The notes: a model not told the origin generated them from the sequence alone. DNA of 64,000 nucleotides from an uncultured Bacteroidales bacterium (GCA_963771005.1 CAVYRO010000008.1:762102-826101); one strand, 5' to 3'. Numbered from the stretch's first letter, positions 21,259 to 49,157 are shown. Numbers and translations: made by a program.

Positions 21259-21264
21259 CAAAGT

Positions 21265-23402: not shown

Positions 23403-23404
23403 AG

Positions 23405-30112: not shown

Positions 30113-30115
30113 TAT

Positions 30116-33417: not shown

Positions 33418-33984
33418 ATGGACTTAAACTCTAACTGGGACAAGGTGAAGGAAGGAGATGAGAAAGCCTTTGAGGGGTTCGTGAAAGAAATGAGTCCGTT
33501 CCTCCTGAGGTATATTCTCTTTATTACCGGCGATCCGAGGATCACGGATGAAATATTGCAGGATGTCTTTTTAAAACTCTGGACGGGCAGGGAAAAAATC
33601 ATGATCCGGGGAACGATCAAATCTTACCTCTACAAAACTGCCAAAAATCACAGCATAAACTATCTCCTGGGTCAAAAAACCAAAAAATCTTCAGTTCATA
33701 ACCTTGTAAGCGGTGAATCCTGGCAATTCATTTCGGAAACGCTTGAATTTAATGATGAAATCATTGAAAAACTTGAGGCAAAGGATACCCTTACCCGGGT
33801 TGAAGACTGTGTGAAGGAACTCCCGGATCAATGCAGGGCCATATTTGAACAGAGCAGATTCCGGGGTAAGTCCAACAAAGAAATCGCCGTTCATTTTAAA
33901 ATTTCCGAAAACACCGTCCGGGCTCAACTATGGAGAGCCTTGGTCAAATTAAGATCGGCCCTTTTCCATCCGCCCCGGCCCTAA
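33418..33984 (+). CDS. ECF (sigma-70 family, group 4) sigma factor
   Basis: 188 aa with region 2 and region 4 patterns (LPDQCRAIFEQSRFRGKSNKEIAVHFKISENTVRAQLWRAL). An anti-sigma gene follows it. Confidence 0.9.
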   Translation: MDLNSNWDKVKEGDEKAFEGFVKEMSPFLLRYILFITGDPRITDEILQDVFLKLWTGREKIMIRGTIKSYLYKTAKNHSINYLLGQKTKKSSVHNLVSGESWQFISETLEFNDEIIEKLEAKDTLTRVEDCVKELPDQCRAIFEQSRFRGKSNKEIAVHFKISENTVRAQLWRALVKLRSALFHPPRP

Positions 33985-34089
33985 ACCTTACCCGCACTGT
34001 GATAATTTTCCAAACGTTCCATTATTTTCATCTCTGTGTAATCAGCCGGTATAAAAATCTTGTCTTATATATCAGAAGCTTCTAATTTT

Positions 34090-35250
34090 ATGAGTACCAC
34101 GGAAAACATCAATGAGCGTATTCAAACGCTGATCCTTGCATTTCTCGATAATTCGATCACGCGTGAGGAATTGAAAACTTTAAAAGAATGGCTGAAAAAT
34201 AATGATGAAAATCTCGGGTATTTCAGCCAGGTCAGGGCTGCCTGGTACCTGTCAGACAGAAATCAGGCAGATCTATCCATTGACACCGATAAATTGTGGT
34301 TATCCATCAGGGATAGGATGAAATTACCAGGGATTTACGGCGAAAAGAAGAAAACCTACCATTCAACCTCTTTTCCTGTATACCGAATGGCCGCCGTCTG
34401 GGTCCTTTTTCTCCTGGCAGGGACTTTTCTGGGGTATTACATTCCTGCACCAAAAGGACCTGCGACTGAAATATCCCAGGTAACGGTTCCCATTGGTTCC
34501 CGGAGCCAGGTCCAGTTGCCCGATGGCAGCATGGTCTGGTTGAATGCAGGCAGCACCCTGAAATACGGAAACGATCTCAATGGTAAAATCCGGAAGGTCG
34601 AACTTTCCGGGGAAGGATTCTTCAAGGTGGCCCACGATCCTTCCCGGCCCTTCGTAGTCGAGGCAAACCAACTGTTTGTCAGGGCGCTGGGAACCACATT
34701 TAATGTAAAAGCATATCCTGAGGAGAACAGGATCATTACCACACTTGTAGAAGGTAAAATAAAACTTGAAGGTAAAATAAACAAGGCCGGCCCTTTTGAA
34801 CTGACCATGGAACCTAATCAAAAAATTACATATTACCCTTCGAGTAATTCATTCAGCAAGAATGTTCAACCTCCTGAAATTGCTGAAAAAGAAGAAGTTG
34901 ATGAACTGCACGAGAAACCTGTCCTCGTAGTTGCCAATACGGTTTATAAAACCAACCATGTAAATACCGCCATTTACACCTCATGGAAAGACAAAAAATG
35001 GATCATAGAAGGGGAGACTCTCGGGGACCTTGCGGTAATGCTGGACAGGCGGTATGATGTGGAGATCGTTTTTACTTCCGAAGATTTGAAACGCTATCAT
35101 TTCTCCGGAATAATTGCAAATGAGACTTTGGAACAGGTACTTGATATTTTGAGGCTGACCGTACCCATGTCCTACAAGATGAAGAAGGGAGAGGTTGAAT
35201 TGTCGCTGGATCCTGAACTGCAAAAGAAATACGAATCAGCTTATAAATAA
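34090..35250 (+). CDS. FecR-family transmembrane anti-sigma factor
   Basis: The track ORF starts at TTG 34060; the first ATG is at 34090. One TM helix (AAVWVLFLLAGTFLGYYI). FecR core: LPDGSMVWLNAGSTLKY...VELSGEGFFKVAHDPSRPFVV....VRALGTTFNV. Confidence 0.9.
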   Translation: MSTTENINERIQTLILAFLDNSITREELKTLKEWLKNNDENLGYFSQVRAAWYLSDRNQADLSIDTDKLWLSIRDRMKLPGIYGEKKKTYHSTSFPVYRMAAVWVLFLLAGTFLGYYIPAPKGPATEISQVTVPIGSRSQVQLPDGSMVWLNAGSTLKYGNDLNGKIRKVELSGEGFFKVAHDPSRPFVVEANQLFVRALGTTFNVKAYPEENRIITTLVEGKIKLEGKINKAGPFELTMEPNQKITYYPSSNSFSKNVQPPEIAEKEEVDELHEKPVLVVANTVYKTNHVNTAIYTSWKDKKWIIEGETLGDLAVMLDRRYDVEIVFTSEDLKRYHFSGIIANETLEQVLDILRLTVPMSYKMKKGEVELSLDPELQKKYESAYK

Positions 35251-35323
35251 TACTGTGATGAACCCAAATCCAATATTGTCCAAAAAAATTCAAACGCATG
35301 AAAAATAAATTCATTTAAAAAAG

Positions 35324-35349
35324 AATTGGGACTGGTCAGAGTCCCAATT
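35324..35349. other. Perfect 10-bp hairpin between the anti-sigma and susC-like genes
   Basis: aattgggact-ggtcag-agtcccaatt. An A-run lies on the 5' side, so the U-tract would be present only in a minus-strand transcript. Confidence 0.6.
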
Positions 35350-35420
35350 CCGCAAGAAGTATTCAACGCATTCTTAAGCTTAGAATACATCAAATAATTA
35401 TTAACTAACACTACAAAGCT

Positions 35421-38400
35421 ATGAAAAAGATCGTTAAAGGGCGAGTTGCGCGCCTGCCAAGTTGTTATTTCAAAACCATCCTTATCATGAAATTTCTAAT
35501 ACTACTAACTATCATTTCAGGTTTGGACGTTTCAGCAAGCCTGTATTCCCAGACTGCCAGGCTGAATGTAAACGTGGAGAATAAGCCGATCCGGGACGTT
35601 TTAAAATTAATTGAATCCCAAAGCTCCTTTCGTTTCTTCTACAGTGATGATTTCAATGACCTGGGGAAGAAAGTAAGCCTTAATATAAAGGATAAAATGA
35701 TCGACCAGGTAATGATCCGGTTACTGGACCAGGGAACCATAACATATAAAGTTCTGAATAACAATGTAGTGGTGCTTACACCGGTCTCTTCCCCCCTGGA
35801 TATTCAGCTCAAGACCATTACAGGGAAGGTCACGGATGAAGACGGTCAGCCGATGGCCGGGGTAACCGTGCTTGAAAAAGGGACAAACAACGGGACCATT
35901 ACGGATATACAGGGTAATTTTACCATCAATGCCTCCCCGGGGTCAACCCTTGTATTTTCATTCGTAGGGATGAAAACGCAGGAAGTCCTGGTCGGAGAAC
36001 AGGTAAGCATCAATTTGCAAATGACCGGTGAGGTAACGGCCCTTGATGAAGTCGTGGCCGTTGGTTACGGTACGCAGAAAAAGGCCAACCTGACCGGATC
36101 CGTGGCCTCGGTTTCGGGCAATGAACTGCAGGACCGGCCCATGCCAAATGTGGCCGAGGTATTGAGAGGTGTTACACCCAACCTTAATATCAGTTTCAAC
36201 GGTTACGGTGCAGAACCCGGTTCTTCACGAAGCTGGAATATCCGCGGAATGGGATCGATAAACGGTGACGATTCGCCCCTGATCCTGATCGACGGCGTTG
36301 AATCGGATATCAATGAAATAAATCCCCAGGATATCGAAAGCGTTTCAGTGCTTAAGGATGCCTCCGCCTCGGCTATTTATGGTTCGCGGGCACCTTTCGG
36401 TGTAGTGCTGATAAACACAAAGAAGGGAACCAAGGGCCAGATGCATATTCAATACAACAACAACGTTTCGTTCGACAGGCTCCTGGGAGTAAGTCATATG
36501 TATAATTCGGTTATCTATGCCACTGCACTGAACCAGGTCGCTGCAAATTCGGGAAGCGCCCCCGTTTTCTCGGATGAACAGGTGGGAAGAATGCAGGCCT
36601 TTATGGACGGGACTCTGAAAGAGGAATATAATCCAGCCAACCCGGCTCATTCCATATGGCAGACACGGCAGACGGGAAATGCGAATTATGACTGGCCCTA
36701 TGAATACCTGAGTAATCATAAATTCGACCAGAGCCATAATCTGAATATTAGCGGCGGAAATGATATCAGCCAGTATTACATTTCCCTGGGTTACTATGAC
36801 GAAAACGGTTTTTACGCTGTGGGATATGACGATTACAAAAGGTATAATGCACTGGCTAATTTCACCACCAAGGTTACCGACTGGCTGAAATTTGATCTGA
36901 ATACAAAGTATGCAAATTCGCAAACCGATTATCCTCTCGGGATAACAACGGTTGAGCGGAGGTATTTCTGGACCAATTTTTATATTTTCGGTCCCAATGT
37001 AGCCAAATACAATGCCGACGGCAGCCTTTCGAATCCCATGTACCGGTCACTTCAAAGTTCGGGAAGGGATAAAACCACGACCAATGACTTCCTGATCACC
37101 CTCAAGTCGGAACTGGAACCGGTCAAAGGGTGGAAAACGGATATTTCGTTCAATTATAACATAGTGGGCATGAACCAGACGGTAAACCCGATACCTATCC
37201 CGGTTCAGCTCCAGGATGGCAATGTGGGTAATGTGGGAAAACCGTCGGCTGCATACGAAGATTATTTTTCGAATTCACCCTACGCCCTTTTCAATATAGT
37301 GACATCCTATGAAAGAAAAGTGGGCAATCACTATTTTAAAGCTCTGGCCGGATATGAGCAGGAGCAGAAATCCTATACCTGGCTCTATGCCCGGGGGGAT
37401 AACCTGATTACCCAGCTTGTTCCCTCGTTAAGCACGGCGCTTGGCACAAAAGTGGCCGATGATGCAAAATGGGACTGGGCAACACAGGGTGTTTTTGGAC
37501 GATTGAACTATAACTACAATGAAAAATACCTCCTGGAGTTCAGTGCAAGATATAACGGGTCCTCAAGGTTTGATCCCGATACAAGGTGGGGATTTTTCCC
37601 GTCCGGATCTGCGGGTTACCAAATTTCCAAGGAAAATTTCTGGGAACCTATAGAACGTTATGTTAACAATTTAAAGATCAGGGCTTCCTATGGTTCACTC
37701 GGGAACCAGAATGTGGCAAATTATTTATACATCCCAACCGTTCCCGTAGCAAGTGAATCCCCCTACATTATAGCCGGTGAACGCCCTCCCTATGCACAAA
37801 CACCGGGGATCATCAGCGCAGGTCTGACATGGGAAACGATAACCACATTGAATTTTGGACTTGATGCCGCCTTCCTGAAGAACAGACTGACCTTGAATTT
37901 TGACCAGTTCAACCGGAAAACTTCCGATATGTTCGGCCCCCAGGGAACGCTGCCTTACAGCTTAGGCACGGTCACACCGGATGCCAATAATGCGGAAATG
38001 GAAACCAGGGGTTTCGAACTGATGCTGGGGTGGAGAGACGGCTTCGCAAACGGTCTTTCTTACAATGTACAGGTTAACCTGGGCGATAACTATTCGACCA
38101 TCCTTACCTATACGAACGATAACGGGCTGATCTCCGACTGGTATGAAGGAAAAAGGGTTGGTGAAATCTGGGGGTATGAAAGTAACGGTATCATACAAAG
38201 CCAGGCAGAAGCAGACCAGATGGCTGACCAGACCGCAATCTTCCCCAACTGGGGTCCCGGAGATATCGAATACAAGGATCTGAACAGGGACGGAAAGATC
38301 ACCAGCGGCGCCGGAACATTATCCGACCATGGCGATAAGGTAGTTATCGGTAACAGTTCCCCGAGGTATAATATCGGTATATCCGGTGGAGTCAACTGGA

Positions 38401-38906
38401 AAGGTGTTGATTTCAACATGCACTGGCTGGGTCTTGGCAGGCATGACTGGTTCCCTCCCGTGTATAGCGGCACATTCTGGGGGCTGACCTATACCTACCT
38501 GAACACCGCTATCCTGGAAGGCTCGCCGGTACTGGATTATTGGAGACCTGCCGATGAGACCAACATGTTTGGACCCAATACAGACGCTTACCTGCCAAAA
38601 CCTTATGGTAACAATGCTGAACTCAGGAAAAACAGGGAAACGCAATCAAAGTACCTTCTTAACGCTGCTTATTTACGATTGAAGAATGTTCAACTGGGAT
38701 ATACGATCCCAGCCAAATTTTCGGAAAAATTATTGATCCAGAGAGCAAGAATCTATATTTCAGGCGAAAACCTGATCACGATCAAAAACATTCCGAAATC
38801 AATCGATCCCGAACAGGCTATCCCGGTAACAGGAAGCTATACAGACCAGGGCGCTTACTACCCGATGGCAAAATCTGTTTCAATCGGTTTAAATGTAACA
38901 TTCTAA
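35421..38906 (+). CDS. SusC/RagA-family TonB-dependent transporter with N-terminal STN signalling domain (PUL 2)
   Basis: 1161 aa. The STN-like extension (NVENKPIRDVLKLIESQSSFRFFYSDDF) precedes the CarboxypepD_reg domain (ITGKVTDEDGQPMAGVTV) and plug (LDEVVAVGYGTQKKANLTGSV). It ends ...SIGLNVTF. Confidence 0.95.
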   Translation: MKKIVKGRVARLPSCYFKTILIMKFLILLTIISGLDVSASLYSQTARLNVNVENKPIRDVLKLIESQSSFRFFYSDDFNDLGKKVSLNIKDKMIDQVMIRLLDQGTITYKVLNNNVVVLTPVSSPLDIQLKTITGKVTDEDGQPMAGVTVLEKGTNNGTITDIQGNFTINASPGSTLVFSFVGMKTQEVLVGEQVSINLQMTGEVTALDEVVAVGYGTQKKANLTGSVASVSGNELQDRPMPNVAEVLRGVTPNLNISFNGYGAEPGSSRSWNIRGMGSINGDDSPLILIDGVESDINEINPQDIESVSVLKDASASAIYGSRAPFGVVLINTKKGTKGQMHIQYNNNVSFDRLLGVSHMYNSVIYATALNQVAANSGSAPVFSDEQVGRMQAFMDGTLKEEYNPANPAHSIWQTRQTGNANYDWPYEYLSNHKFDQSHNLNISGGNDISQYYISLGYYDENGFYAVGYDDYKRYNALANFTTKVTDWLKFDLNTKYANSQTDYPLGITTVERRYFWTNFYIFGPNVAKYNADGSLSNPMYRSLQSSGRDKTTTNDFLITLKSELEPVKGWKTDISFNYNIVGMNQTVNPIPIPVQLQDGNVGNVGKPSAAYEDYFSNSPYALFNIVTSYERKVGNHYFKALAGYEQEQKSYTWLYARGDNLITQLVPSLSTALGTKVADDAKWDWATQGVFGRLNYNYNEKYLLEFSARYNGSSRFDPDTRWGFFPSGSAGYQISKENFWEPIERYVNNLKIRASYGSLGNQNVANYLYIPTVPVASESPYIIAGERPPYAQTPGIISAGLTWETITTLNFGLDAAFLKNRLTLNFDQFNRKTSDMFGPQGTLPYSLGTVTPDANNAEMETRGFELMLGWRDGFANGLSYNVQVNLGDNYSTILTYTNDNGLISDWYEGKRVGEIWGYESNGIIQSQAEADQMADQTAIFPNWGPGDIEYKDLNRDGKITSGAGTLSDHGDKVVIGNSSPRYNIGISGGVNWKGVDFNMHWLGLGRHDWFPPVYSGTFWGLTYTYLNTAILEGSPVLDYWRPADETNMFGPNTDAYLPKPYGNNAELRKNRETQSKYLLNAAYLRLKNVQLGYTIPAKFSEKLLIQRARIYISGENLITIKNIPKSIDPEQAIPVTGSYTDQGAYYPMAKSVSIGLNVTF

Positions 38907-38921
38907 AAAAAAAAATTGATT

Positions 38922-40643
38922 ATGAGAAAGTTAAATATAATCGTAAGCATTATTGCATTGTTCATGTTGATCAGTTCATGCAATAAAGATTTCCTGGACC
39001 GGTCCCCTTTGGATGAGGTCGGTGAATCTGATTTTTTCAAAAGTCCCAATGACCTTGAGACCTATTTGAACCAGTTTTACAATTTCGGCGTATCGCATGA
39101 GTATGGCTCGGATGTGGGAACGGATAATGCGATTTATAAATCTATCAGCACCTGGCTCGACGGGGAGAATACATTGGATGATGCCGTTTCTCCCAATTTT
39201 GGACCGGTAAGGAGCATTAACTACTTCTTTGACAACTACAGGCGGGTAGAGGAAAACGCTGATTTTTCCGAATATCAGCAGTTCCTGGGAGAGGCTTATT
39301 TCTTTAAAGCCAGGATCTATTTCGGACTGCTTGAAAGTTATGGTAATATTCAATGGTACAACTCCGTGCTGTCTACAGATTCTCCGGATTTATACAAGAA
39401 AAGGGATCCCCGGAACGTAGTGGCCGATAATATCATTGCCTGCCTGGATACGGCAGTCATGTACATGGATGAAGACAGGACCGACGGAGCTTCCCGCCTG
39501 AACAAATGGATGGCATTGCTCTTACAAAGCAGGATCGCCCTCTATGAAGGTACATGGGAAAAGTATCACAACGGTGATCCGTTCGGCGTGAGCAATTCCC
39601 AGCCGGAAAAATATCTCAACAAAGCCGTTGAAGCGGCAACCCAGATAATGAACTCTGGTTTATACGATGTTTATACAACCGGTAAACCTACAGAGGATTA
39701 TTATGACCTGTTCGCCACTTTGCGTACCTATTCAGATAATCCGGAAGTTTTACTCTGGAAGGAATATAACAATGAACTGGGGAAGGGGGAGACGGTTTTC
39801 AGAAGACAGAGGAATTACGGGCAGTACACTCCCTATGACCATACGTTCACCAAGGAACTTGCCGATGCCTACCTGTGTACCGACGGTAAGCCTATTTCGG
39901 TGAGCCCATTGTTTATGGGTTATGATTCACTGGTGCTTGAAGAGCAGAACAGGGATCCCAGATTTTATCAAACGATATCCACTCCCGATCAACCCTGGGT
40001 GATCCATTCCGACGGATCGGTGACCTATTTCAGAGAGCTCTATGATAAACTTAACAGCGGGGAAGCTTACAATGCCTCATGCGGGTATTGTATGAGAAAA
40101 GGTTATGATGCACGGGAAATTTACCAGGTACCCCAGTATGGCGAAGAACCGGGTATTGTGTACAGGTATGGTGAAGTCCTCCTCAACTTTGCCGAAGCAA
40201 AAGCCGAACTGGGTTCAATCACCCAAACCGACCTGGATATCTCCGTCAATAAGCTCCGTGACAGGGTGGGAATGGCACACCTGGAGATGGCCGACATTAC
40301 GGCTGATCCCAATTGGGATTTCCCTGCCCTTTCGCCCCTGATCAACGAGATCCGGCGTGAGAGGAGGGTCGAATTGGCGCATGAAGGCTTCAGGGGGATG
40401 GATATATCAAGGTGGTCTGCTGCCGGTGAACTGATCGTCGGAAAAAGGCCAAAAGGACTTAAGGCGTCACAGCTAAATTCCAATCCCTTCCCGGTGGATG
40501 CCAACGGCTTTCTCGATCCCTACAGGGATGCGATACCTTCAGGGTACGGTTTTCATGTCGGACGGGATTACCTGAATGCGATACCCAAAAGCCAGCTTGT
40601 TCTGAATCCTGAGTTGAACCAGAATCCGGGCTGGACGGAATAG
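38922..40643 (+). CDS. SusD/RagB-family lipoprotein (PUL 2)
   Basis: ATG at 38922 (track start 38916 is TTG). Lipobox FMLISSCNKDF. SusD-like helices (EAYFFKARIYFGLL, YRYGEVLLNFAEAKAEL, RRVELAHEGFR). Confidence 0.9.
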   Translation: MRKLNIIVSIIALFMLISSCNKDFLDRSPLDEVGESDFFKSPNDLETYLNQFYNFGVSHEYGSDVGTDNAIYKSISTWLDGENTLDDAVSPNFGPVRSINYFFDNYRRVEENADFSEYQQFLGEAYFFKARIYFGLLESYGNIQWYNSVLSTDSPDLYKKRDPRNVVADNIIACLDTAVMYMDEDRTDGASRLNKWMALLLQSRIALYEGTWEKYHNGDPFGVSNSQPEKYLNKAVEAATQIMNSGLYDVYTTGKPTEDYYDLFATLRTYSDNPEVLLWKEYNNELGKGETVFRRQRNYGQYTPYDHTFTKELADAYLCTDGKPISVSPLFMGYDSLVLEEQNRDPRFYQTISTPDQPWVIHSDGSVTYFRELYDKLNSGEAYNASCGYCMRKGYDAREIYQVPQYGEEPGIVYRYGEVLLNFAEAKAELGSITQTDLDISVNKLRDRVGMAHLEMADITADPNWDFPALSPLINEIRRERRVELAHEGFRGMDISRWSAAGELIVGKRPKGLKASQLNSNPFPVDANGFLDPYRDAIPSGYGFHVGRDYLNAIPKSQLVLNPELNQNPGWTE

Positions 40644-40678
40644 AATACAGATAAATTCGGTTACTGACAAGGTTTTTA

Positions 40679-42056: not shown

Positions 42057-42124
42057 AAAAGAAACCCGGGAAAGCGGAATACATAGCTAAAACAAAATGG
42101 CGGATTCATAAAAAATACTAAAAT

Positions 42125-43480
42125 ATGAAAAGAAGGACTTTTATAAACCGGTCCGTTATAAGTATCGCGGGTACAGCAATGGCAGTATCGCCGGTTGCCC
42201 CGGTCTTATCGTCATGCAGCCGGACCGGTAAAAAACTGACTCTGGCCCTGATGGGCTGCAGGGATGCGAAAGCGGGGATGATCAGCCAGGCATTAAAGGG
42301 AATGCAGGATATCAGCATTAAGAGTGTGTTTGATTTTGACAGGACGCAATGCACCGAAGCTGCCCGGTTGATCCGCCAATCCCCGGATCAGCTGCCTGAG
42401 GAAGCAAGCGATATGGAATCCATATTGAAGGACCGGGAAATTGACGCGATATTCATTTTCCTGCCCGAGCACTGGCGGGCTCTTGCCGCAGTAAGGGCCT
42501 GCGAGGCAGGTAAAGATGTATATATCGGTGCCGGCCTGCCTGCACATACTGTTTGGGAAGGTACCCAGGTGCTCAGGGCGGCCCGGAAATATAAAAGACT
42601 TATCCAGTGCGGATTCACGTTGAGAAGTTCGGAAAGTGTATCCGCAGCGAAGGAGTATATCACAAGTGGGCAGTTGGGTAAGGTCGTTCAGATCAATGTT
42701 TTAAGCCTGGATAAAAATATGCCGGAGAACTCAGGAACAGACCAGGCAAAACCGGAAGGGCTGGATTGGGACGGTTGGATAGGACCGGCACCTTATGAGA
42801 CCTACAACCGGGGGTTATATCAGAGGGAGGTTGTGAATTCAGGAGAAGGATTCTGGAATTTCAATTCCGGCAGGATGGCCAAAGCCTCCTATGGATTTGA
42901 CCTGGCCAGGATGGTGATGGGAGATCCGCCGGATCCGGTTTCCGTCTGTAGCTACGCGAGTAACCCTTCACAGGGAGTGAAGGGAGAATTGCCGGAACGT
43001 CAGTGTGTGATTTTTGATTTCGGAGATTTTGTAATGAACTGTGAAACAGGACAAACCTATAAGTACATGAAAGAAGGCCCGGTTTCGATGGAGAACGGAA
43101 TTGCTCCCTGGATTTTGCTGGCAAACCGCATTGAAGTGTATGGCCAGAAAGGTTTGATGTACATGGATACGGAGACCGGCGGCTGGCAGGTACTGAATAA
43201 CGAAGGAAAGGTCGTTCAACAGGGGATGGGAGATTTCCCCGAAGAGAAGCATATCCGGAATTTTACCGGCTGGATCCGAAGCAGGGATCTGACTGCCGGA
43301 AACATAGAACAAGGCTTGTGCAGCGGTAATCTTGCTCACCTGGCAAATATTGCCTACCTGGCCGGAAACAAGCAGATCCTCTTTGATGCCGGCAAAGGGG
43401 AGATAACAAATGACAGGGAAGCGAATAGCATGTTAAAAACAAATTACAGAAGTGAATACCGGATGCCGGAGAAATTATAA
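42125..43480 (+). CDS. Gfo/Idh/MocA-family NAD-binding oxidoreductase with Tat-type signal (GH109-like or glycoside 3-dehydrogenase-like)
   Basis: 451 aa. N-terminus MKRRTFINRSV...SSC. The Rossmann region and length are typical of exported Gfo/Idh/MocA proteins found in PULs. Confidence 0.75.
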   Translation: MKRRTFINRSVISIAGTAMAVSPVAPVLSSCSRTGKKLTLALMGCRDAKAGMISQALKGMQDISIKSVFDFDRTQCTEAARLIRQSPDQLPEEASDMESILKDREIDAIFIFLPEHWRALAAVRACEAGKDVYIGAGLPAHTVWEGTQVLRAARKYKRLIQCGFTLRSSESVSAAKEYITSGQLGKVVQINVLSLDKNMPENSGTDQAKPEGLDWDGWIGPAPYETYNRGLYQREVVNSGEGFWNFNSGRMAKASYGFDLARMVMGDPPDPVSVCSYASNPSQGVKGELPERQCVIFDFGDFVMNCETGQTYKYMKEGPVSMENGIAPWILLANRIEVYGQKGLMYMDTETGGWQVLNNEGKVVQQGMGDFPEEKHIRNFTGWIRSRDLTAGNIEQGLCSGNLAHLANIAYLAGNKQILFDAGKGEITNDREANSMLKTNYRSEYRMPEKL

Positions 43481-43525
43481 CTGAGAAGAGAAAAAAAATA
43501 AAAGATATAAAAATCGCGATTAAAT

Positions 43526-44803
43526 ATGAAAAATCATACTAATCATAAGAGTGCGAATGAAAAGGTGGTATTAGGTCTTATCGGAGCCGGGGGCAGAGGG
43601 ACCTACCTGGCCCTGAACTTCTGGAAGAATTGTCCCGGCATCGAGTTCAAATATATCTGCGACGTGGATAAATCCAGGGGAGGCAGAGCCATGGAGGAAC
43701 TTTCGAAGGAACAGGAACATAAGCCTCTTTGGGTGGAGGATATGCGTAAGGTGTATGAGGATAAGGATGTGGATGCCGTGATCATAGCTACACCGGAACA
43801 CTGGCACGCTCTGGCTTTTATCCGGGCCTGCCAGGCGGGAAAGGATGTTTATATCGAAAAAAATATTTCCCAGAGTATTCCGGAAGGATTAAAAATGATC
43901 GAAGCCGCTCAAAAGTACAAGCGTGTTGTACAGGTCGGGACGCAAAACCGAAGCTCCGATTATGGATATTCAGCACGCGAATACCTGAAAAAAGGAAAGT
44001 TAGGGAAAATAGTAAGCATTAAAAGCCATTGTTTACTTTCGGGTGACAAACCCTGGTTTTTAAAGGAAGACTCCCCTGCCCCTCCGGGATTAAACTGGGA
44101 TATGTGGCTCGGACCTGCACCCCTCGTTCCTTACAATGTCAGCCGTCATAAAGCACCGTACGACTGGTGGGAATATTCACCGGGCCTGGCCATGGCCATG
44201 ACGGCCCACGTGATCGATTTTACACGGTTGGTCTTAGGTGATCCCGATGATCCCAAATCCGTATATTGTGCCGGCGGCCGTGTTTTATACGATGACAAGA
44301 GGCCCATCCCGGACATGCAGTCCGTCATCTTCGGTTTTGAGGATTTCAATATCACGCTTGAAAGTGCGAGTTTTGGGAATTATATGGCTAAGTCAGGCCC
44401 TGAGATCAGGTTCGGTAAGAAATTTCCGGACTGGAAACTTAACAGCACGAGGATCGAAATATACGGCACGGAAGGCTACATGTTTTTAGGGATCATGGGC
44501 GGTGGCTGGCAGGTATTTGACAGCGATGGTACTATCCGCGATCAGGAATACGGCTATTTCCCGGATGAAAATCATCAGAAAAATTTCATCAGTTGCGTCC
44601 GTTCCGGTAAGACCCCGAACGGAGACATCGTTAACGGACATAAGGGTGCATCCCTGATCCATCTGGCCAACCTATCCTATCGCACCGGCAACAAACAATT
44701 ATTTTACGATAATAAGACAGGGAGAATGACCAACTCGGAACTGGCAAATCAGATTTCCGAAGGATCATACAGGTCCGTGTATGCCCTGCCCGAGGTGATC
44801 TGA
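43526..44803 (+). CDS. Gfo/Idh/MocA-family oxidoreductase (no obvious signal peptide)
   Basis: 425 aa. GLIGAGGRG Rossmann motif, EKN/ATPEHWH pattern. Paralogous in layout to 42125..43480. Confidence 0.8.
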   Translation: MKNHTNHKSANEKVVLGLIGAGGRGTYLALNFWKNCPGIEFKYICDVDKSRGGRAMEELSKEQEHKPLWVEDMRKVYEDKDVDAVIIATPEHWHALAFIRACQAGKDVYIEKNISQSIPEGLKMIEAAQKYKRVVQVGTQNRSSDYGYSAREYLKKGKLGKIVSIKSHCLLSGDKPWFLKEDSPAPPGLNWDMWLGPAPLVPYNVSRHKAPYDWWEYSPGLAMAMTAHVIDFTRLVLGDPDDPKSVYCAGGRVLYDDKRPIPDMQSVIFGFEDFNITLESASFGNYMAKSGPEIRFGKKFPDWKLNSTRIEIYGTEGYMFLGIMGGGWQVFDSDGTIRDQEYGYFPDENHQKNFISCVRSGKTPNGDIVNGHKGASLIHLANLSYRTGNKQLFYDNKTGRMTNSELANQISEGSYRSVYALPEVI

Positions 44804-44935
44804 CGAAGGACGTAAAAGAGTCCAGGGAAGTAATTGCAGGGACCGCAGGCACACACGGGTCTATACCCGCTGGCCGCAAAAGATGCATAGGCTATGTTAT
44901 TTACCTGATATAAACACAAAAACATGAAAAAGTAA

Positions 44936-45259
44936 AAAACGCTCCATACGCATGATTATTGGTCGGCGCAAACCGATCCTGAACAAAGATCCACAGTCGA
45001 TGAAGGGTTTAAAGACAATCTCTTTTGTTTTAAACCTCAGGAAACCATTGATTTTATGAATCATCTGGAGGAACCCTGGATCGCATACAAGATTTTGGCA
45101 GCAGGTGCCATTCACCCGGAGAAAGCCTTCCCGCATGCTTTTAACAGCGGAGCAGACTTTATCTGCGTTGGAATGTACGATTTTCAGATCGTTGAAGATT
45201 GTAACATCGCACTGGATTCCCTTGCAAATATTAACAGGGTAAGGCCATGGCGGGGATAG
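44936..45259 (+). pseudogene. Probable 3' gene remnant (open frame without a credible start)
   Basis: The frame is open from the stop at 44933..44935. It reads ...DYWSAQTDPEQRSTVDEGFKDNLFCFKPQETIDFMNHLEEPWIAYKILAAGAIHPEKAFPHAFNSGADFICVGMYDFQIVED... This looks like a globular C-terminal domain. The first ATG is at 45056, and only ~130 bp separate it from the upstream gene. Confidence 0.35.
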
Positions 45260-45310
45260 TAGCCGGCTCCCCGGCAGGTAAAAACTGATAAATCAACAAG
45301 AAGAGTAAGA

Positions 45311-46096
45311 ATGGAAAAGGTAAAAAAGAAAACGAAGCAGATATTTTGGATATTTTTAGGTCTGGCAGCATTAGTGATCATGGTGCTCGCGTTCGAAGTG
45401 ATCCGTACTTACGGGAGAACTCAGGTGCAGGTAAATATACATCAGAACAAGGAACTCATTTACCGTTCAACGTTCGGGGAACCTCCCCAGTTTGCGGTTT
45501 GGCTGGAAAGTCCCGAAACAGGGCGTTCTGTTACAGTCTTTGTCACACACCGTGCAGGTATTGGCGACTGGGAAGGCAAATCGGATGTTCCTGTGGCATT
45601 GCCGAGATGGCATGAATTGTTTAAGGGGGAAGGAGGGCAAAATACCGCCCGTGCCGAAGAGGCGACTGATGATTACCCCCAGGCTGTATCGGGCGCCACC
45701 CCGAAGGACGATTATTTTTCCGTAAGAGCGGAGGTTAAACCGGGCACGCGTTGGATATGCTGGGTTGAGATGAACCTTGCAGGTGATTACAACGAGGCAT
45801 ATCCCGAACAGGATCTGGAAAGCATGGAGGTGGATGAATTTGCATGCGGACAACCGGCTTTAATTTATCGCTCCGAAATTGTGGCTGATGAAGGCTCGAA
45901 GTATGATCTCAGCCTGGTGAACCAATCAGTCTGGAAGGACGGGATAACCACGCTGGAACCTGTAAGTGAAGGTATGACCACGGCAAAAGATGTATTCGAT
46001 AAGATGGATATCGAGATTATCCGTCCAAAACCAAAGCTGATAAACTGGCATAAGATCTTTACATCTAAAGATAAGGCTTCTCAAAGTACCAATTAA
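45311..46096 (+). CDS. Membrane-anchored protein of unknown function, DUF2271-like
   Basis: 261 aa. TM anchor IFWIFLGLAALVIMVLAF. PQFAVWLESPETGRSVTVFV...ALPRWHE...AVSGATPKDDYF resembles the DUF2271 pattern (low-confidence recollection). Confidence 0.5.
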   Translation: MEKVKKKTKQIFWIFLGLAALVIMVLAFEVIRTYGRTQVQVNIHQNKELIYRSTFGEPPQFAVWLESPETGRSVTVFVTHRAGIGDWEGKSDVPVALPRWHELFKGEGGQNTARAEEATDDYPQAVSGATPKDDYFSVRAEVKPGTRWICWVEMNLAGDYNEAYPEQDLESMEVDEFACGQPALIYRSEIVADEGSKYDLSLVNQSVWKDGITTLEPVSEGMTTAKDVFDKMDIEIIRPKPKLINWHKIFTSKDKASQSTN

Positions 46097-46108
46097 AGGA
46101 GGATTCAA

Positions 46109-47140
46109 ATGAAAATTTCACGCAAACCAGGATTTAACTCCCTGCTGTTCATTATTGCAGGTGTCTTTCTTTTTGTGACATGGAACGCTGCATTGAATGC
46201 AGCAAACTACATAACCGTAGCAACCATCGGAGGCGGACCGCCGGCCATGGATAAGTCGCTCGGAATGCAACAGGCGGTTGAAAAAGTGAAAGCATTCTGG
46301 CAGAATCAACTGGCCCAGGTACTACCGGATAAACCCGATCTGATCGTCTTACCGGAACATTGTGATCTGCCGGGAGGATGGTCTTCCCTGAGAAATGAAT
46401 ACCTGCAAACCCGTAAAAACCAGATCCGGGATTTTTTCGCATCAATTGCCAGGGAATATCATTGTTACATCGCATATGGCACGCACAGGCAATTGGAGGA
46501 CGGAAGTTTGCGCAATTCGCTCATGGTTATCGACAGAAATGGAGATGTGGCCGGAATTTATAACAAGAATTTTCCCACCATCGGTGAAATGGAAAGCGGG
46601 ATAAAAGCAGGAAATAAAGCACAGCTTATCCGGTGTGATTTTGGAACTATCGGATGCGCCATTTGCTTTGACCTGAATTTTAAGGAATTGAGAGAGACAT
46701 ACGAGGCAGAAAAACCGGATATCATCGCATTTTCCTCCATGTACCACGGCGGGTCGGTACAGGAGGACTGGGCGTACTCGTGCCATTCGTTTTTCATAGG
46801 GGCCATCGGATCAACGAAAACCCCGTCACAGGTTCGCAACCCGCTGGGAAAGATCGTTGCCGGAAGCACGAACTATTTTAATTATGCCGTGACCCGGATT
46901 AACCTCGACAGCCGGGTAGCTCACCTGGATGAGAACAGGCAGAGATTCAGCGATATGAAAGCAAAATACGGTAAAAAAGTGACTATACTGGACCCGGGAG
47001 AACTTGGCCCGGTTCTCCTATCCAGTGAAGATCCGGACATAAGTGTGGATCAGATGATCAGGGAATTCCATATCGAACTTTTTGATGATTATTTTGCCCG
47101 GTCAAGGGCAGTCCGGCTGAAGCCGGAAAACAGGGAATAG
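46109..47140 (+). CDS. Carbon-nitrogen hydrolase (nitrilase superfamily) with N-terminal signal/anchor
   Basis: 343 aa. Candidate Glu-Lys-Cys triad: LIVLPEHCD, IYNKNFP, IGCAICFDLNF. Hydrophobic N-terminus LLFIIAGVFLFVTW. An AAGGAGG Shine-Dalgarno-like motif lies 7 nt before the ATG. Confidence 0.8.
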   Translation: MKISRKPGFNSLLFIIAGVFLFVTWNAALNAANYITVATIGGGPPAMDKSLGMQQAVEKVKAFWQNQLAQVLPDKPDLIVLPEHCDLPGGWSSLRNEYLQTRKNQIRDFFASIAREYHCYIAYGTHRQLEDGSLRNSLMVIDRNGDVAGIYNKNFPTIGEMESGIKAGNKAQLIRCDFGTIGCAICFDLNFKELRETYEAEKPDIIAFSSMYHGGSVQEDWAYSCHSFFIGAIGSTKTPSQVRNPLGKIVAGSTNYFNYAVTRINLDSRVAHLDENRQRFSDMKAKYGKKVTILDPGELGPVLLSSEDPDISVDQMIREFHIELFDDYFARSRAVRLKPENRE

Positions 47141-47190
47141 GGTTCCGGATTTGAATATCTTGTATCTGCATTATCTTATTTTATCCATCC

Positions 47191-47509
47191 GGAATCGTAG
47201 GGACAGGTCGTGACCTGTTGGAATCGTAAGAACGGATTGCGATCAGTTGGAATCGTAAAGACGGGTTGCGACCTGTTGGAATCGTAAAAACGGGTTGCGA
47301 CCTGTTGGAATCGTAAAAACGGGTCGCGACCTGTTGGAATCGTAAAGACGGGTTGCGACCTGTTGGAATCGTAAAGACGGGTTGCGACCTGTTGGAATCG
47401 TAAAGACGGGTTGCGACCTGTTGGAATCGTAAAGACGGGTTGCGACCTGTTGGAATCGTAAAGACGGGTTGCGACCTGTTGGAATCAGAACGACAGGTCG
47501 CGACCTGCC
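47191..47509 (+). repeat. Tandem array of 11 x 29-bp units (ggaatcgtaaagacgggttgcgacctgtt), each containing a 16-nt hairpin-forming dyad
   Basis: Unit starts at 47191, 47220, 47249, 47278, 47307, 47336, 47365, 47394, 47423, 47452 and 47481, an exact 29-bp period. The first and last units are degenerate. It lies between the convergent genes 46109..47140 and 47535..49157. Confidence 0.95.
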
Positions 47510-47534
47510 CCTACAACACTGCCCGCGTCCTACA

Positions 47535-49157
47535 TTATTTTCCAAAACCATGAGACGCCCTGATCTCCCTGTAAACCTTTTCAGCCCTTTCAAGATAACT
47601 CATTGCCTCGGCTGTTTCTTCCTCTGTCGCGAAACCTGAATAATTCGTGATCCAGTTCCGGCCCGATTCCAGGTATCTGAGCAAATAATCCAACGATTCT
47701 TCAAAATAAACCTGTTCATTATCCCTCAAAAAATAAACCGGATTCGTATGGGCATATACTGTAAGGTTTCTCGGCAACATCTGTTCATAGTCGACCGATG
47801 TCACCCTTCCGGCTATCCAGGTACTCCGGTTAAGTGGTATTTCAGCCTCCATTTCGGCGGTATAGAGACCTCCCTTTTCCCTTAGATCCAGCATATCTTT
47901 CCAGGCTACGACCCTCCCGTTTGCAACGATGTCGAGCCTTCTGAAGGGAAGCATTGATTCAGCGCGGAGCCTTGCTTTTACTACCTTCTGCCCATGAAAA
48001 TCAATCGTTTCACCGGTTAAATGATCATCAACCGAAAAGGTAAGCATGGGGCTATTGGTGATAAATCCCCTCCCCTTTTTCATTCCGTCGATCCAGTTGT
48101 TATAGGTTTTTTCGCCTTCAAGACGTACGTAAAGCCTGTTGCTTCCCACAGGGATATCGTTATCCATTTTGTCCGTACCGGATGCCACGGGAATATGGAA
48201 CCCGGCATTCAGGTACTGGTAATAGATGACCACCCCGGGCATCTCGGGAAATTCTACCGGCGACAATCCGGAATAATCCCACGGTCCCTTGTGACTCGGG
48301 AGACCAGTCGGGTCGTTGTAGGTCATGATCTCCACCGCATCGATCAGCCCCAGGGGAAAGGCGATGGCGGATTCCAGCCCAGGCAGGTTGGAAAAATGCG
48401 CCCAGACGTTCGATGCATGTTGCTGTGCAGATTCTTCAAGCCGGGGCGAGAGGAGCACGTTGGGGTGGGCTCTTCCGCCATCGGGTTCCAGGGGCTGGAT
48501 GATCTTTTTCAGATCGAGCAGGCTGGCATGACCCAGATCCCAGTCGCGGATCTCCTGTCCCACATAAATAAACTGATCATTAGTGGAGATCTTATCCAGT
48601 GAGCCCGTGAATTTTTCCACATCATGGGTAAAATCGCTGGTGAGCAGATTGACAACATGAAGATCTTCGGCCTGCATTTGCTGAAAAGAGGATTCAAGCG
48701 CAAGGAAATGGACATGCGTATCGCCGCTCATGAACCCTTTCCTGGACATGTCGATCCAACGCTCAAGCTTGAATTCCTGTTTGTCCCCTGTTGGCTGTGA
48801 AGGATAAATGACCCTGTTTAAGGGAAATGTTTCGGGGCCACGACGGATCTCGATATAGAGGCTGTCGTCCGGGCTGGTTATGCTGAAATTCCCGTCAATA
48901 TACCAACGTTTTTTCCCCAGGTAATTGACGTATTCATGCGGGTCGTCAACGGGTACATCATACCCCATGTTGTTCCAGACGGCAACAGTGCACCATGCCG
49001 TCTTCCCGGTTTCTTCATCAACAACGCGGCCCGAATATGAATTTTGTCCGAAGGCAGATGAAAGTGGGAAAAAGATAATCAAAGCAAGAATAAGGCTGTT
49101 ATTTATCCTGCGTACACCGAAAATCATCCGGGATCCTGAAGTGATAGGGTTTTTCAT
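47535..49157 (-). CDS. Exported CehA/McbA-type (PHP-like) metallohydrolase
   Basis: 540 aa. Signal LILALIIFFPLSSAFGQ and metal-binding start motif SGDTHVHF. The family call is from memory of this motif and length only. Confidence 0.55.
   Translation of the reverse strand: MKNPITSGSRMIFGVRRINNSLILALIIFFPLSSAFGQNSYSGRVVDEETGKTAWCTVAVWNNMGYDVPVDDPHEYVNYLGKKRWYIDGNFSITSPDDSLYIEIRRGPETFPLNRVIYPSQPTGDKQEFKLERWIDMSRKGFMSGDTHVHFLALESSFQQMQAEDLHVVNLLTSDFTHDVEKFTGSLDKISTNDQFIYVGQEIRDWDLGHASLLDLKKIIQPLEPDGGRAHPNVLLSPRLEESAQQHASNVWAHFSNLPGLESAIAFPLGLIDAVEIMTYNDPTGLPSHKGPWDYSGLSPVEFPEMPGVVIYYQYLNAGFHIPVASGTDKMDNDIPVGSNRLYVRLEGEKTYNNWIDGMKKGRGFITNSPMLTFSVDDHLTGETIDFHGQKVVKARLRAESMLPFRRLDIVANGRVVAWKDMLDLREKGGLYTAEMEAEIPLNRSTWIAGRVTSVDYEQMLPRNLTVYAHTNPVYFLRDNEQVYFEESLDYLLRYLESGRNWITNYSGFATEEETAEAMSYLERAEKVYREIRASHGFGK

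Follow-up and report, generated by a model that had tools for sequence, protein, structure and literature searches.

We found that positions 33,418 to 49,157 of the window, a 64,000-nucleotide stretch of DNA from an uncultured Bacteroidales bacterium, contain a sigma/anti-sigma/SusC/SusD system that is genuine and in which no classical glycoside hydrolase is recognisable. Import through SusC/SusD would be under ECF-sigma/anti-sigma control, and the periplasmic machinery would centre on a redox cassette of three proteins instead of a glycoside hydrolase. The explanation that we prefer, to which we give about an even chance, is a membrane-tethered periplasmic sugar/glycoside dehydrogenase; a carrier with covalently attached flavin would re-oxidise the NAD(P)H bound to it, and an esterase and an amidase would be accessories. 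The gene content, synteny, motifs and DUF2271 homology are the demonstrated part of this explanation.

The regulatory and uptake genes and the list of downstream genes given in the original prediction were recovered by profile matches and motifs, the STN domain below its gathering score. An ECF-type sigma factor of the Bacteroidetes subfamily (33418..33984, plus strand) matched TIGR02985 with 134.6 bits (cutoff 126.4), together with Sigma70_r2 and r4_2, and is followed by a FecR-type anti-sigma factor (34060..35250, plus strand; PF04773, 58.9 bits; PF16344, 59.7 bits). The FecR ORF as listed starts with TTG and has 396 aa, against 319 aa for its orthologue in the related locus L004, and its 5' end may be over-extended. 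The SusC-like TonB-dependent transporter (35421..38906, plus strand; TIGR04056, 875 bits; Plug; CarboxypepD_reg) has an N-terminal STN-like signalling extension at aa 72-121, before the CarboxypepD_reg domain, where PF07660 scored 23.4 bits and thus less than the gathering score of 28.4; its L004 orthologue has a clear precomputed STN match, and its L010 orthologue is 56% identical. The SusD-like lipoprotein (38916..40643, plus strand; PF07980, 159 bits) shares 64-68% identity with its orthologues in L010 and L008. These three loci, L004, L008 and L010, are orthologous PULs which kept sigma/FecR/SusC/SusD with Gfo, the DUF2271-like gene and the CN-hydrolase. The predicted lack of a classical glycoside hydrolase was borne out, as none of the ORFs between 40845 and 49157 matched a GH or PL family in Pfam or NCBIfam. 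As regards co-transcription with susCD, a scan for consensus promoters and terminators gave a result no better than chance.

The core of the downstream region was a conserved cassette, in the order Tat-lipoprotein Gfo, signal-less Gfo and membrane-anchored DUF2271-like protein. It was present in genomes of Bacteroidales and Marinilabiliales, with only 43-70% identity in the DUF2271-like protein and with varying flanks, and the arrangement was found independently in loci L002-L006. Among the 74 informative loci (those with enough upstream sequence), 59 had a Gfo gene directly upstream of the DUF2271-like gene on the same strand, and 43 had two. The second Gfo gene, which lies immediately 5' of the DUF2271-like gene at a median distance of 42 bp from its stop codon, had an orthologue (at least 40% identity) in 67 of 80 loci. 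The RR Tat motif was found in the distal Gfo of 42 of 45 loci, followed in 36 of 45 by a lipobox-like Cys, and in the proximal Gfo of only 6 of 59 loci. Of the partners of the Gfo pair, the DUF2271-like protein shows the tightest linkage.

In the window, the first member of the pair (Gfo1; 42125..43480, plus strand) is a Gfo/Idh/MocA paralogue with a Tat signal (KRRTFI) and a lipobox-like LSSC; it matched PF19051 with 49.6 bits and PF01408 with only 18.8 bits. The second (Gfo2; 43526..44803, plus strand) is a signal-less dehydrogenase of the same family (PF01408, 56 bits; PF19051, 61 bits), and the gap between the two genes is just 45 bp, leaving no space for a signal peptide. The Gfo2 motifs GAGGRG, EKN, QNRS and His are intact, and GAGGRG, EK, QNRS and His were kept in every locus, from which we infer that Gfo2 is the catalytic NAD(P)-binding subunit. 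Most loci have an intact Gfo1; in the window, L004 and L008 its ORF is full-length and four motifs are gone (the Rossmann GxGxxG, the EK Lys, QN and His). Gfo1 of the window is a degenerate pseudo-dehydrogenase, and probably it no longer catalyses but only escorts Gfo2 in export and tethers it to the membrane. The original prediction contained neither this degeneracy nor the tight linkage and the flavinylation motif of the DUF2271-like partner.

Such motif loss would also be expected if the locus were a decaying or reduced PUL, a partly degraded copy that no longer performs the complete pathway. The gene remnant reported earlier (44936..45259, plus strand) is real, and its source can now be named: behind a stop codon, about 107 codons in frame encode the C-terminus of a DoxX-fusion membrane protein (tblastn against the DoxX-fusion at L084:6891-8468, 40% identity over its residues 411-524, E 7e-23). 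Full-length copies, about 520 aa with a DoxX Pfam match, occur in a minority of the related loci. Moreover, a 743-aa gene and the AP_endonuc_2 gene of the closest orthologous PULs, L004 and L008, are missing from the window. Nevertheless, we regard decay as very unlikely. Besides the remnant and the motif loss in Gfo1, all ORFs of the locus are intact, and the isolate locus L010 is likewise minimal (SusC/D, Gfo, CN-hydrolase and DUF2271-like gene). L004 and L008 share the full-length degenerate Gfo1 with the window although identity is only 35-36%, so it must have been retained for a long time.

The original prediction had named GH109 glycosidases and 3-dehydrogenases among exported Gfo proteins, and only the second kinship held. 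Their best PDB matches were 8TDF and 8TDH (Gfo2 against 8TDF, E 5.9e-24, motifs shared), and BT_2158_fam was their top NCBIfam model. The closest characterised proteins that they resemble are therefore the AL3/BT2158-type glycoside 3-dehydrogenases of an oxidative, elimination-based pathway. GH109 alpha-N-acetylgalactosaminidase (2IXA) is also a periplasmic, often Tat-exported protein of the Gfo/Idh/MocA fold, but it aligned with the Rossmann part of Gfo2 only (E 5.6e-5) and not at all with Gfo1, so GH109 membership is not supported. Like the AL1-AL4/BT2156-BT2159 3-keto-glycoside pathway of Alistipes and Bacteroides thetaiotaomicron (10.1101/2024.03.25.586180; PMC8121099), with which its Gfo proteins share their best structural and HMM similarity, the locus has a Gfo/Idh/MocA pair with one Tat-signal member and one without, and, as far as its sequence tells, a tightly bound cofactor, a periplasmic setting and no classical glycosidase. 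The differences are also considerable. The scores of its Gfo proteins (76 and 107 bits) are far under the equivalog cutoff of 750, the degenerate paralogue in the window is the Tat-bearing Gfo, and its tightest partner, the DUF2271-like protein with a flavinylation motif, is unreported for AL/BT. Regulation differs as well, by ECF-sigma/SusCD in the window and by SusR or a DUF6377 regulator in AL/BT.

Pathway hallmarks were found in the cassette-bearing loci: ThuA (fusions in 14), DUF1080 3-keto-disaccharide hydrolase (6) and AP_endonuc_2, the last in L004 and L008; aldo-keto reductase was a neighbour in 18. Together with the Gfo kinship, they favour the non-hydrolytic, oxidation-initiated route predicted before. 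However, the route is not complete in the window, which, unlike AL/BT, has neither the AP_endonuc_2 lyase nor the DUF1080 hydratase. The same hallmarks point to 3-keto chemistry and argue against oxidation at the anomeric C1, by which the Gfo pair would act as an aldose/oligosaccharide 1-dehydrogenase forming a lactone, the Tat alpha/beta-hydrolase as lactonase, and downstream enzymes on aldonic acids. We consider C1 oxidation quite unlikely. Glucose-fructose oxidoreductase (GFOR, a weak match) and aldose-aldose oxidoreductase were indeed among the PDB matches, the alpha/beta-hydrolase has weak dienelactone-hydrolase-type matches, and 6 loci have MR_MLE sugar-acid dehydratase-like genes and L004 a DHDPS gene, but the similarity to 8TDF, 8TDH and BT_2158_fam is much stronger.

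The DUF2271-like protein (45311..46096, plus strand) has 261 aa, an N-terminal TM helix and the motif A-[VI]-[ST]-G-A-T-P-K (T130). Its earlier assignment proved right, though by transitive homology: the protein itself had no Pfam or NCBIfam match even at E<=10, below every DUF2271 HMM threshold, whereas 23 of 36 close and 77 of 92 distant relatives matched PF10029 (DUF2271; best E 1.2e-8), and by this chain it is a divergent DUF2271 relative. In the alignment of the 36 relatives [S/T]-G128-A129-T130-P131 was invariant, and in the 92, with identity down to about 20%, the consensus was DAVTGATP, its T and P being conserved in 90% or more. The AF2 model (pLDDT 75) consists of a helix at 2-33 and then beta strands forming a beta-sandwich, and the Lys-rich N-terminus, by the positive-inside rule, suggests a periplasm-facing domain. 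DUF2271 is an experimentally shown ApbE substrate that carries flavin on the Thr of [S/T]GA[S/T] (PMC8238504). Judged by sequence, the invariant [S/T]-G-A-T-P-K motif of the family is this ApbE flavinylation signature, and the DUF2271-like protein is probably an ApbE-flavinylated electron carrier with covalently bound flavin. It resembles the DUF2271/PepSY-like ApbE systems (PMC8238504; PMC11334425) in its homologous domain, equal motif position and extracytoplasmic setting. It differs from them in falling under the Pfam threshold, in its own N-terminal TM anchor and C-terminal extension of about 100 aa, and in being tied to Gfo dehydrogenases without an adjoining ApbE, PepSY or DUF4198 gene.

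Several observations count against the explanation that we prefer. A search of the window and of +/-10 kb in 88 related loci found no ApbE/Ftp homologue, so a genomic tie to a flavin transferase is missing, and more distant DUF2271-like family members occupy unrelated gene contexts. The DoxX-fusion, a putative membrane electron outlet, is reduced to a remnant here, the 261-aa protein scores below the DUF2271 thresholds, and Gfo2 of the window's clade lacks the Asp aligned with that of 'GDMACH' in 8TDF. In addition, the characterised AL/BT pathway is redox-neutral and an external acceptor is unnecessary (10.1101/2024.03.25.586180), and this too weighs against it, as do the lyase, hydratase and 743-aa genes missing from the window. 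On this basis the locus might perform redox-neutral NAD-dependent glycoside cleavage (AL3/BT2158 plus partners, or GH109/GH4-like), in which oxidation is transient and the pathway itself regenerates the cofactor, and the DUF2271-like protein would have a structural, anchoring or substrate-binding role. In the characterised relatives, bound NAD is recycled when the 3-keto product is reduced, and the beta-sandwich fold, like the lack of a nearby ApbE, would suit such a subunit, the fold being generic. We nonetheless hold this to be unlikely: a purely structural protein would hardly have an invariant [S/T]GATPK and be homologous to a proven flavinylation substrate, GH109 similarity is negligible, and no AL1- or AL2-type lyase or hydratase is encoded in the window.

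Two hydrolases probably complete the locus as accessories. The Tat-signal alpha/beta-hydrolase (40845..42056, plus strand; twin-arginine motif SRRGFIK, nucleophile elbow GHSLGG) had weak Pfam matches (Peptidase_S9, GCE_fung, DLH) and matched the CE15 structure 8q6s with E 1.5e-8; it is distantly CE15-like and a candidate esterase or lactonase. Homologues were detected by phmmer in 21 of 80 related loci, and an orthologue with 62% identity has the equivalent position in L008. The exported carbon-nitrogen hydrolase of the nitrilase superfamily (46109..47140, plus strand; PF00795, 66 bits; N-terminal signal or anchor) starts 12 bp past the DUF2271-like gene; its Glu-Lys-Cys triad is intact (E83, K153 and C186, plus E160, at least 97% conserved among 18 orthologues). 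About a quarter of the related loci (19/80) have a homologue, and in L010 the gene sits between the Gfo and DUF2271-like genes. The triad and this recurrence bear on the acylated or amidated substrate of the original prediction, which is a candidate. The plus-strand unit ends at a 29-bp tandem repeat array of 10.9 copies (47191..47507; TRF score 508, 92% matches) in the convergent intergenic spacer. Beyond it lies a CehA/McbA-family metallohydrolase with a signal peptide (47535..49157, minus strand; NF038032, 134 bits, cutoff 80), for which neither a Pfam match at E<=10 nor a PDB match was obtained that would back the earlier 'PHP-type' label. It had been counted as part of the PUL; because the gene runs convergently and none of the 80 related loci has a homologue, it is probably a separate minus-strand unit instead.

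A SusC homologue was found within 10 kb of the cassette in only 14 of 80 loci, so the cassette is not intrinsically a glycan-PUL module. This would agree with a non-glycan substrate, SusC/D importing a small amide-, nitrile- or ester-bearing compound (a cyclitol, the aglycone of a cyanogenic or other plant glycoside, an N-acyl compound or a xenobiotic) for Gfo proteins acting as inositol-type dehydrogenases. Inositol dehydrogenase models ranked second among the NCBIfam matches, and an amidase and an esterase would be suitable accessories. The recurrent neighbours, however, handle sugars (GH2 exo-glucosaminidase, RbsD/FucU, MFS sugar transporters, ROK kinase and SIS, besides DUF1080 and ThuA), and the probability of a non-glycan substrate appears slight.

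In the dehydrogenase-carrier mechanism that we prefer, Gfo2 would fold in the cytoplasm with its cofactor and pair with Gfo1, and the heterodimer would be exported by Tat through hitch-hiking and then tethered to a membrane. The pair would oxidise an imported sugar or glycoside, most likely at C3 as in the AL3/BT2158 enzymes. Its tightly bound NAD(P)H would be re-oxidised by the adjacent membrane-anchored DUF2271-like protein, in which ApbE would have linked FMN covalently to Thr130, in the invariant SGAT motif, and electrons would pass on to the membrane, in some related loci perhaps through the DoxX-fusion protein. Ester or lactone groups of the substrate or oxidised product may be stripped by the alpha/beta-hydrolase, and amide, N-acyl or nitrile groups by the CN-hydrolase. 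A similar division of labour is known from the FAD-type glucoside 3-dehydrogenase LacABC/G3DH, whose small subunit is a Tat-signal 'hitch-hiker'. As in the roles proposed here, its catalytic subunit has no export signal of its own, an escort supplies the Tat signal, and a further subunit is devoted to electron transfer. In LacABC this is a cytochrome c, on which the enzyme depends (PMC8121099). The proteins are unrelated: in the window an NAD-Gfo would stand for the FAD-GMC enzyme, a Gfo paralogue for the small subunit, and the DUF2271-like protein, with putative covalent FMN, for cytochrome c. Zymomonas glucose-fructose oxidoreductase (PMC8121099) is an earlier case of a Gfo enzyme exported by Tat with its cofactor, tightly bound NADP, already in place, but it is a homo-oligomer with the signal on the catalytic subunit, working ping-pong with a second sugar and without a protein electron acceptor. 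How periplasmic Tat-Gfo dehydrogenases re-oxidise tightly bound NAD has been stated to be unresolved, and 'specialized proteins such as cytochromes' were proposed (10.1101/2024.03.25.586180; PMC8121099). If our reading is true, the cassette may explain how exported Gfo sugar dehydrogenases dispose of their electrons.

We found that the gene inventory of PUL 2 (33418-47140, plus strand) given in the original prediction was essentially correct, as judged by ORF listing and HMM scans. Genes for an ECF sigma factor (33418-33984) and a FecR-type anti-sigma factor (34060-35250), both above their HMM cutoffs, were followed on the plus strand by those for a SusC-like TonB-dependent transporter (35421-38906; TIGR04056, 875 bits) and a SusD-like lipoprotein (38916-40643; PF07980, 159 bits). 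The susC and susD genes were adjacent, with a spacing of 9 bp, as expected of a PUL, and the position of the sigma and FecR genes upstream of an STN-extended SusC was that of a trans-envelope signalling PUL. The STN-like N-terminal extension of SusC (aa 72-121) scored 23.4 bits (E 5e-5), under the Pfam gathering score of 28.4; the match was clear in the SusC orthologue of L004, a related locus. The FecR ORF as listed had a TTG start and encoded 396 aa, versus 319 aa in the L004 orthologue, and its residues 2-120 were covered by a spurious Endotoxin_N match; the real start probably lies further downstream. After SusD, following a gap of 200 bp and all on the plus strand, came an alpha/beta-hydrolase of 403 aa with the twin-arginine signal SRRGFIK, two Gfo/Idh/MocA proteins, a 261-aa DUF2271-like protein with an N-terminal TM helix (45311-46096), and an exported CN-hydrolase of 343 aa, whose gene started 12 bp after that of the 261-aa protein. 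The first Gfo protein (Gfo#1; 42125-43480, 451 aa) carried a Tat signal and a lipobox-like LSSC. The second (Gfo#2; 43526-44803, 425 aa) had no signal peptide and no room for one, since the gap preceding it was 45 bp; a 507-bp spacer separated it from the 261-aa gene. No GH or PL family was identified by Pfam or NCBIfam for any ORF in 40845-49157, so the predicted lack of a classical glycoside hydrolase was borne out and PUL 2 was not a classical-CAZyme PUL. An Rfam scan of 32500-51000 found no family, and a promoter and terminator scan of 33000-50600 gave counts no higher than those in shuffled sequence, the sigma-70 consensus used being inappropriate for Bacteroidota.

The CehA/McbA-family metallohydrolase gene on the minus strand (47535-49157; NF038032, 134 bits against a cutoff of 80; no match in Pfam or PDB to back the label PHP-type) had been counted as part of the PUL, and this assignment was not upheld. 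None of the 80 related loci described below had a homologue, and the gene was convergent to the PUL and co-directional with a different alpha/beta-hydrolase gene (49448-50350). Thus, it probably belongs to a neighbouring unit. A tandem repeat (47191-47507; 29 bp x 10.9 copies, 92% identity, consensus GGAATCGTAAAGACGGGTTGCGACCTGTT) filled the spacer where the CN-hydrolase and CehA-like genes converge; each of its units held an imperfect palindrome, and a spurious 116-aa repeat ORF (47243-47593) arose from it on the minus strand. Downstream, some 7 kb from the PUL, genes were found for a cupin-domain protein (53346-53936) and for a further CN-hydrolase that had no signal (54124-55071; PF00795, 130 bits); a link between this pair and the exported CN-hydrolase is possible. 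On the other side, just upstream of the AraC/TPR neighbour of the PUL, a minus-strand cluster (27292-31042) resembled a cassette for sugar modification by O-carbamoylation: it encoded an NAD-dependent epimerase/dehydratase, a carbamoyltransferase (NodU/CmcH type) and a protein of 308 aa faintly similar to nucleotidyltransferases. A separate PUL (PUL 1, 13117-26261) contained a GH87-like alpha-1,3-glucanase (14872-16920, minus strand), SusC/SusD (18034-23299) and GH97 (24522-26261), and looks like an alpha-glucan locus. Its DUF6377 regulator is of the type also found as AL5 in the AL oxidative cluster.

The oxidative breakdown of glycosides by Tat-exported Gfo/Idh/MocA proteins, a non-Koshland route, was described recently (10.1101/2024.03.25.586180; PMC8121099). 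Among solved structures, the two Gfo proteins of PUL 2 best matched 8TDF and 8TDH (Gfo#2 at E 5.9e-24, Gfo#1 at E 1.3e-17), and the alignment to 8TDF kept the Rossmann motif, HxHA, EK, Q(N), LNWD..GPAP..PYN and the catalytic His. The sister entry 8TDI is the 'P2B11 glucuronide-3-dehydrogenase', from the study that defined the AL1-AL4 / BT2156-BT2159 pathway; from this entry and the P2B11 preprint we infer that 8TDF and 8TDH are AL3/BT3-type enzymes. The top NCBIfam model for both proteins was the BT_2158_fam glycoside 3-dehydrogenase (NF058561), with scores of 76 (Gfo#1) and 107 bits (Gfo#2) against a cutoff of 750, and they appear by these scores to be homologous to the BT_2158 family but not equivalogs. 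Gfo#2 contained GAGGRG, EKN, QNRS and the His, with the aligned active-site Asp missing; Gfo#1 lacked all of these motifs. The original prediction had also raised membership in GH109, which found no support: Gfo#2 matched 2IXA (NagA, GH109) at E 5.6e-5 over residues 12-118, which is the Rossmann region only, and Gfo#1 did not match it at E<=1e-3. This negligible similarity ruled GH109 out. Of the proposed oxidation-initiated route, then, the chemistry itself stays plausible, while GH109 and the CehA-like gene drop out of it. The window also lacked an AL/BT-type lyase (AP_endonuc_2) and a DUF1080 hydratase/hydrolase, and hence the set of genes of the characterised 3-keto-glycoside pathway; L004 and L008, which are orthologous PULs, did have AP_endonuc_2, and six related loci had DUF1080.

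Searching species-representative genomes with a profile of the 261-aa family gave 125 relatives, from which 80 loci were kept, all of them from Bacteroidales or Marinilabiliales (Prolixibacteraceae, Rikenellaceae, Tannerellaceae, termite-gut Prevotellaceae, and Draconibacterium). Of the 74 loci whose upstream sequence reached at least 1.5 kb, 59 had a Gfo gene directly upstream on the same strand; 43 loci had two such genes, and a median of 42 bp lay between the stop of the proximal Gfo and the DUF2271-like gene. The DUF2271-like proteins of these loci were only 43-70% identical to that of the window and the flanking genes varied widely, which argues that the linkage is maintained and not merely inherited. 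A SusC homologue was found within 10 kb in only 14 of the 80 loci; therefore, the cassette of Gfo#1, Gfo#2 and DUF2271-like genes is a portable module that some PULs have recruited. Its recurrent neighbours were an aldo-keto reductase (18 loci), a ThuA-isochorismatase fusion directly upstream of the Gfo pair (14), a Zn-ADH (12), RbsD/FucU (11), SIS and ROK proteins (11 and 10), two clusters of MFS transporters (11 each), a DegT aminotransferase (10), a GH2 exo-beta-glucosaminidase (8), the DUF1080 3-keto-disaccharide hydrolase (6) and MR_MLE (6), which agree with 3-keto-sugar chemistry and sugar handling. The substrate of PUL 2 might also be something other than a glycan, a possibility against which this list has to be weighed. 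Gfo linkage was absent at two loci with very distant family members of 25-37% identity (L087:1870-3733 and L088:4526-6072), and the association with Gfo is thus a feature of the Bacteroidales/Marinilabiliales subfamily specifically. The neighbours of these distant members were an SDR/epimerase-type NAD-binding protein and a flavodoxin-like FMN reductase, and outside Bacteroidales the carrier family may serve other redox enzymes.

The two Gfo positions differed in their export signals. At 45 loci the distal Gfo (Gfo#1 type) had an RR Tat motif in 42 cases and, behind it, a lipobox-like Cys in 36, while only 6 of 59 proximal proteins (Gfo#2 type) had the motif. GAGGRG, EK, QNRS and the active-site His were kept by Gfo#2 in every locus examined. 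Gfo#1 was intact in most loci; its catalytic Lys was gone in L007, L009 and L011, and all four motifs were gone in the window, L004 and L008, where it was still a full-length ORF with 35-36% identity. The simplest reading would be a heterodimer, exported in folded form by Tat on the signal of Gfo#1, which in the clade of the window would have become a pure escort and membrane tether. A Tat-lipoprotein Gfo beside a signal-less Gfo is likely an additional case of Tat hitch-hiking, and this clade would make visible the evolutionary series from an active Gfo#1 paralogue to a pure escort. The FAD-type glucoside 3-dehydrogenases have a parallel architecture of catalytic subunit, Tat hitch-hiker and cytochrome c, but the proteins of the cassette are unrelated to them.

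The 261-aa protein itself had no Pfam or NCBIfam match even at E<=10. Its family comprised 569 homologues and, at the 50% level, 543 clusters, and PF10029 was matched by 23 of 36 close and 77 of 92 distant members (best E 1.2e-8), most of these matches presumably falling below the gathering score. The family therefore appears to be a divergent DUF2271 branch. In 36 members of 52-64% identity, G, A, T and P were invariant in A-[VI]-[ST]-G128-A129-T130-P131-K, and in 92 members down to about 20% identity the consensus was DAVTGATP, with T and P conserved in at least 90%. The window protein reads AVSGATPK, and it has the features of an ApbE substrate, namely [S/T]GA[S/T], for which a preceding D-x-x is preferred, in a probably extracytoplasmic domain, and an N-terminal signal-anchor helix. 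The [S/T]GAT motif of the family is accordingly predicted to be an ApbE recognition motif. In DUF2271, ApbE was shown experimentally to flavinylate the Thr of [S/T]GA[S/T], and a Thr-to-Ala change abolished the modification (PMC8238504). In the AlphaFold model (pLDDT 75), residues 2-33 formed an N-terminal TM helix and a beta-sandwich came next, with the motif in a low-confidence loop before strand 135-142; the richness of the N-terminus in Lys points to an N-in orientation, which would place the motif in the periplasm, where ApbE acts. No ApbE was detected in the window or within 10 kb at 88 loci (phmmer, E. coli Ftp query, E<=1e-3), so a cognate ApbE in the gene cluster was missing throughout and the case for flavinylation is weakened. 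In Bacteroidota, however, the gene for ApbE usually lies at another place in the genome, alongside nqr or rnf.

True orthologues of PUL 2, with SusC/D 56-68% identical, were found in Prolixibacteraceae (L004, L008 and L010), the family of the nearest relatives. L004 comprised sigma, FecR, SusC, SusD, Gfo#1, Gfo#2, the DUF2271-like protein, a 743-aa protein, Nramp, an M20/M28 peptidase, DHDPS, a CN-hydrolase and AP_endonuc_2; L008 included a 62%-identical alpha/beta-hydrolase at the same position and a stand-alone DoxX of 180 aa after a third Gfo-like gene; and L010, from the isolate Mariniphaga sediminis, had sigma, FecR, SusC, SusD, Gfo, CN-hydrolase and DUF2271-like genes. The 743-aa gene (L004:10754-12985 and L008:10721-12952; 82% identical between the loci, no Pfam match) was directly downstream of the DUF2271-like gene in both and absent from the window. 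Between Gfo#2 and the 261-aa gene, a remnant of 107 in-frame codons (44936-45259) was 40% identical (E 7e-23) to residues 411-524 of a protein of about 520 aa that recurs in related loci and begins with a DoxX membrane domain. In this family the N-terminal DoxX (quinone-associated membrane) domain is joined to a C-terminal domain of about 350 aa without Pfam match; examples are L084:6891-8468 and L017 at about 13547-15100 (minus strand), and the fusion recurs in 9-12 of 80 loci beside Gfo, alpha/beta-hydrolase or DUF2271-like genes. It is a candidate for the membrane electron outlet of the cassette. Compared with L004 and L008, the PUL of the window is thus a reduced version, lacking the 743-aa gene and AP_endonuc_2 and retaining only a remnant of the DoxX fusion. 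The locus might accordingly be decaying, a reading to be set against the full-length Gfo#1 ORF.

The CN-hydrolase was a member of the nitrilase superfamily (PF00795, 66 bits against a cutoff of 23.2); E83, K153 and C186, which make up its Glu-Lys-Cys catalytic triad, and E160 were at least 97% conserved in 18 aligned orthologues, its best NCBIfam model was Lnt (39 bits, below cutoff), and it was present in 19 of 80 loci. The alpha/beta-hydrolase was 24% identical (E 1e-10) to one in 19-21 loci, with the same G-x-S-L-G-G elbow. Based on the conserved triad and this recurrence, both enzymes are plausible functional parts of the unit. The alpha/beta-hydrolase appears weakly CE15-like, with a partial match to 8q6s (E 1.5e-8 over aa 199-334) and a GCE_fung score of 22.7 against a cutoff of 27 bits. 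As a CE15 glucuronoyl esterase it was rejected, the match being partial and the motif GHSLGG, not the GCSRxG of the CE15 nucleophile. C1 is another possible site of oxidation, in which case the hydrolase would be a lactonase; the kinship of the Gfo proteins with glycoside 3-dehydrogenases points to C3.

The cassette, in which one Gfo bears a Tat signal, the other has no signal and the third protein carries a flavinylation motif, combines two known kinds of system, 3-keto-glycoside systems and ApbE-flavinylated carriers. We tentatively hypothesize, giving it somewhat less than an even chance, that it forms a novel type of dehydrogenase complex for sugars or glycosides in the periplasm of Bacteroidota, in which an NAD(P)-loaded Gfo is carried through Tat by a lipoprotein Gfo paralogue and delivers its electrons to a membrane-anchored DUF2271-family carrier with covalent FMN. 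Tethered to the membrane, the Gfo#1/Gfo#2 complex would oxidise the imported substrate, C3 being the most likely position; the FMN of the carrier would then re-oxidise the bound NAD(P)H, and the carrier would pass the electrons on to the membrane. The pathway as characterised is redox-neutral, so that a carrier may not be needed or may have a purely structural role. The re-oxidation of tightly bound nicotinamide in the NAD-free periplasm was explicitly left open (10.1101/2024.03.25.586180; PMC8121099), and for BT2158 a second, unidentified substrate was proposed by Liu et al. (PMC8121099). A flavinylation-motif protein adjoining Gfo genes in most of 80 species-level genomes is a concrete candidate for this re-oxidant. 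Flavinylation, complex formation, export mode and co-transcription are predictions from sequence, and the cassette renders the mechanistic question directly testable. In the literature searched, no paper dealt with both flavinylation and Gfo/Idh/MocA enzymes, and none tied ApbE to 3-keto-glycoside metabolism.

For annotation, PULs without GH genes should not be written off as incomplete. If the carrier is flavinylated, ApbE-dependent flavinylation would be extended to carbohydrate catabolism. If the proposed complex is real, the 'missing' re-oxidant of Tat-exported Gfo dehydrogenases would be named, ApbE flavinylation would gain a new function, and periplasmic glycan oxidation would be coupled to membrane electron transport in organisms without cytochrome-c-type acceptors.
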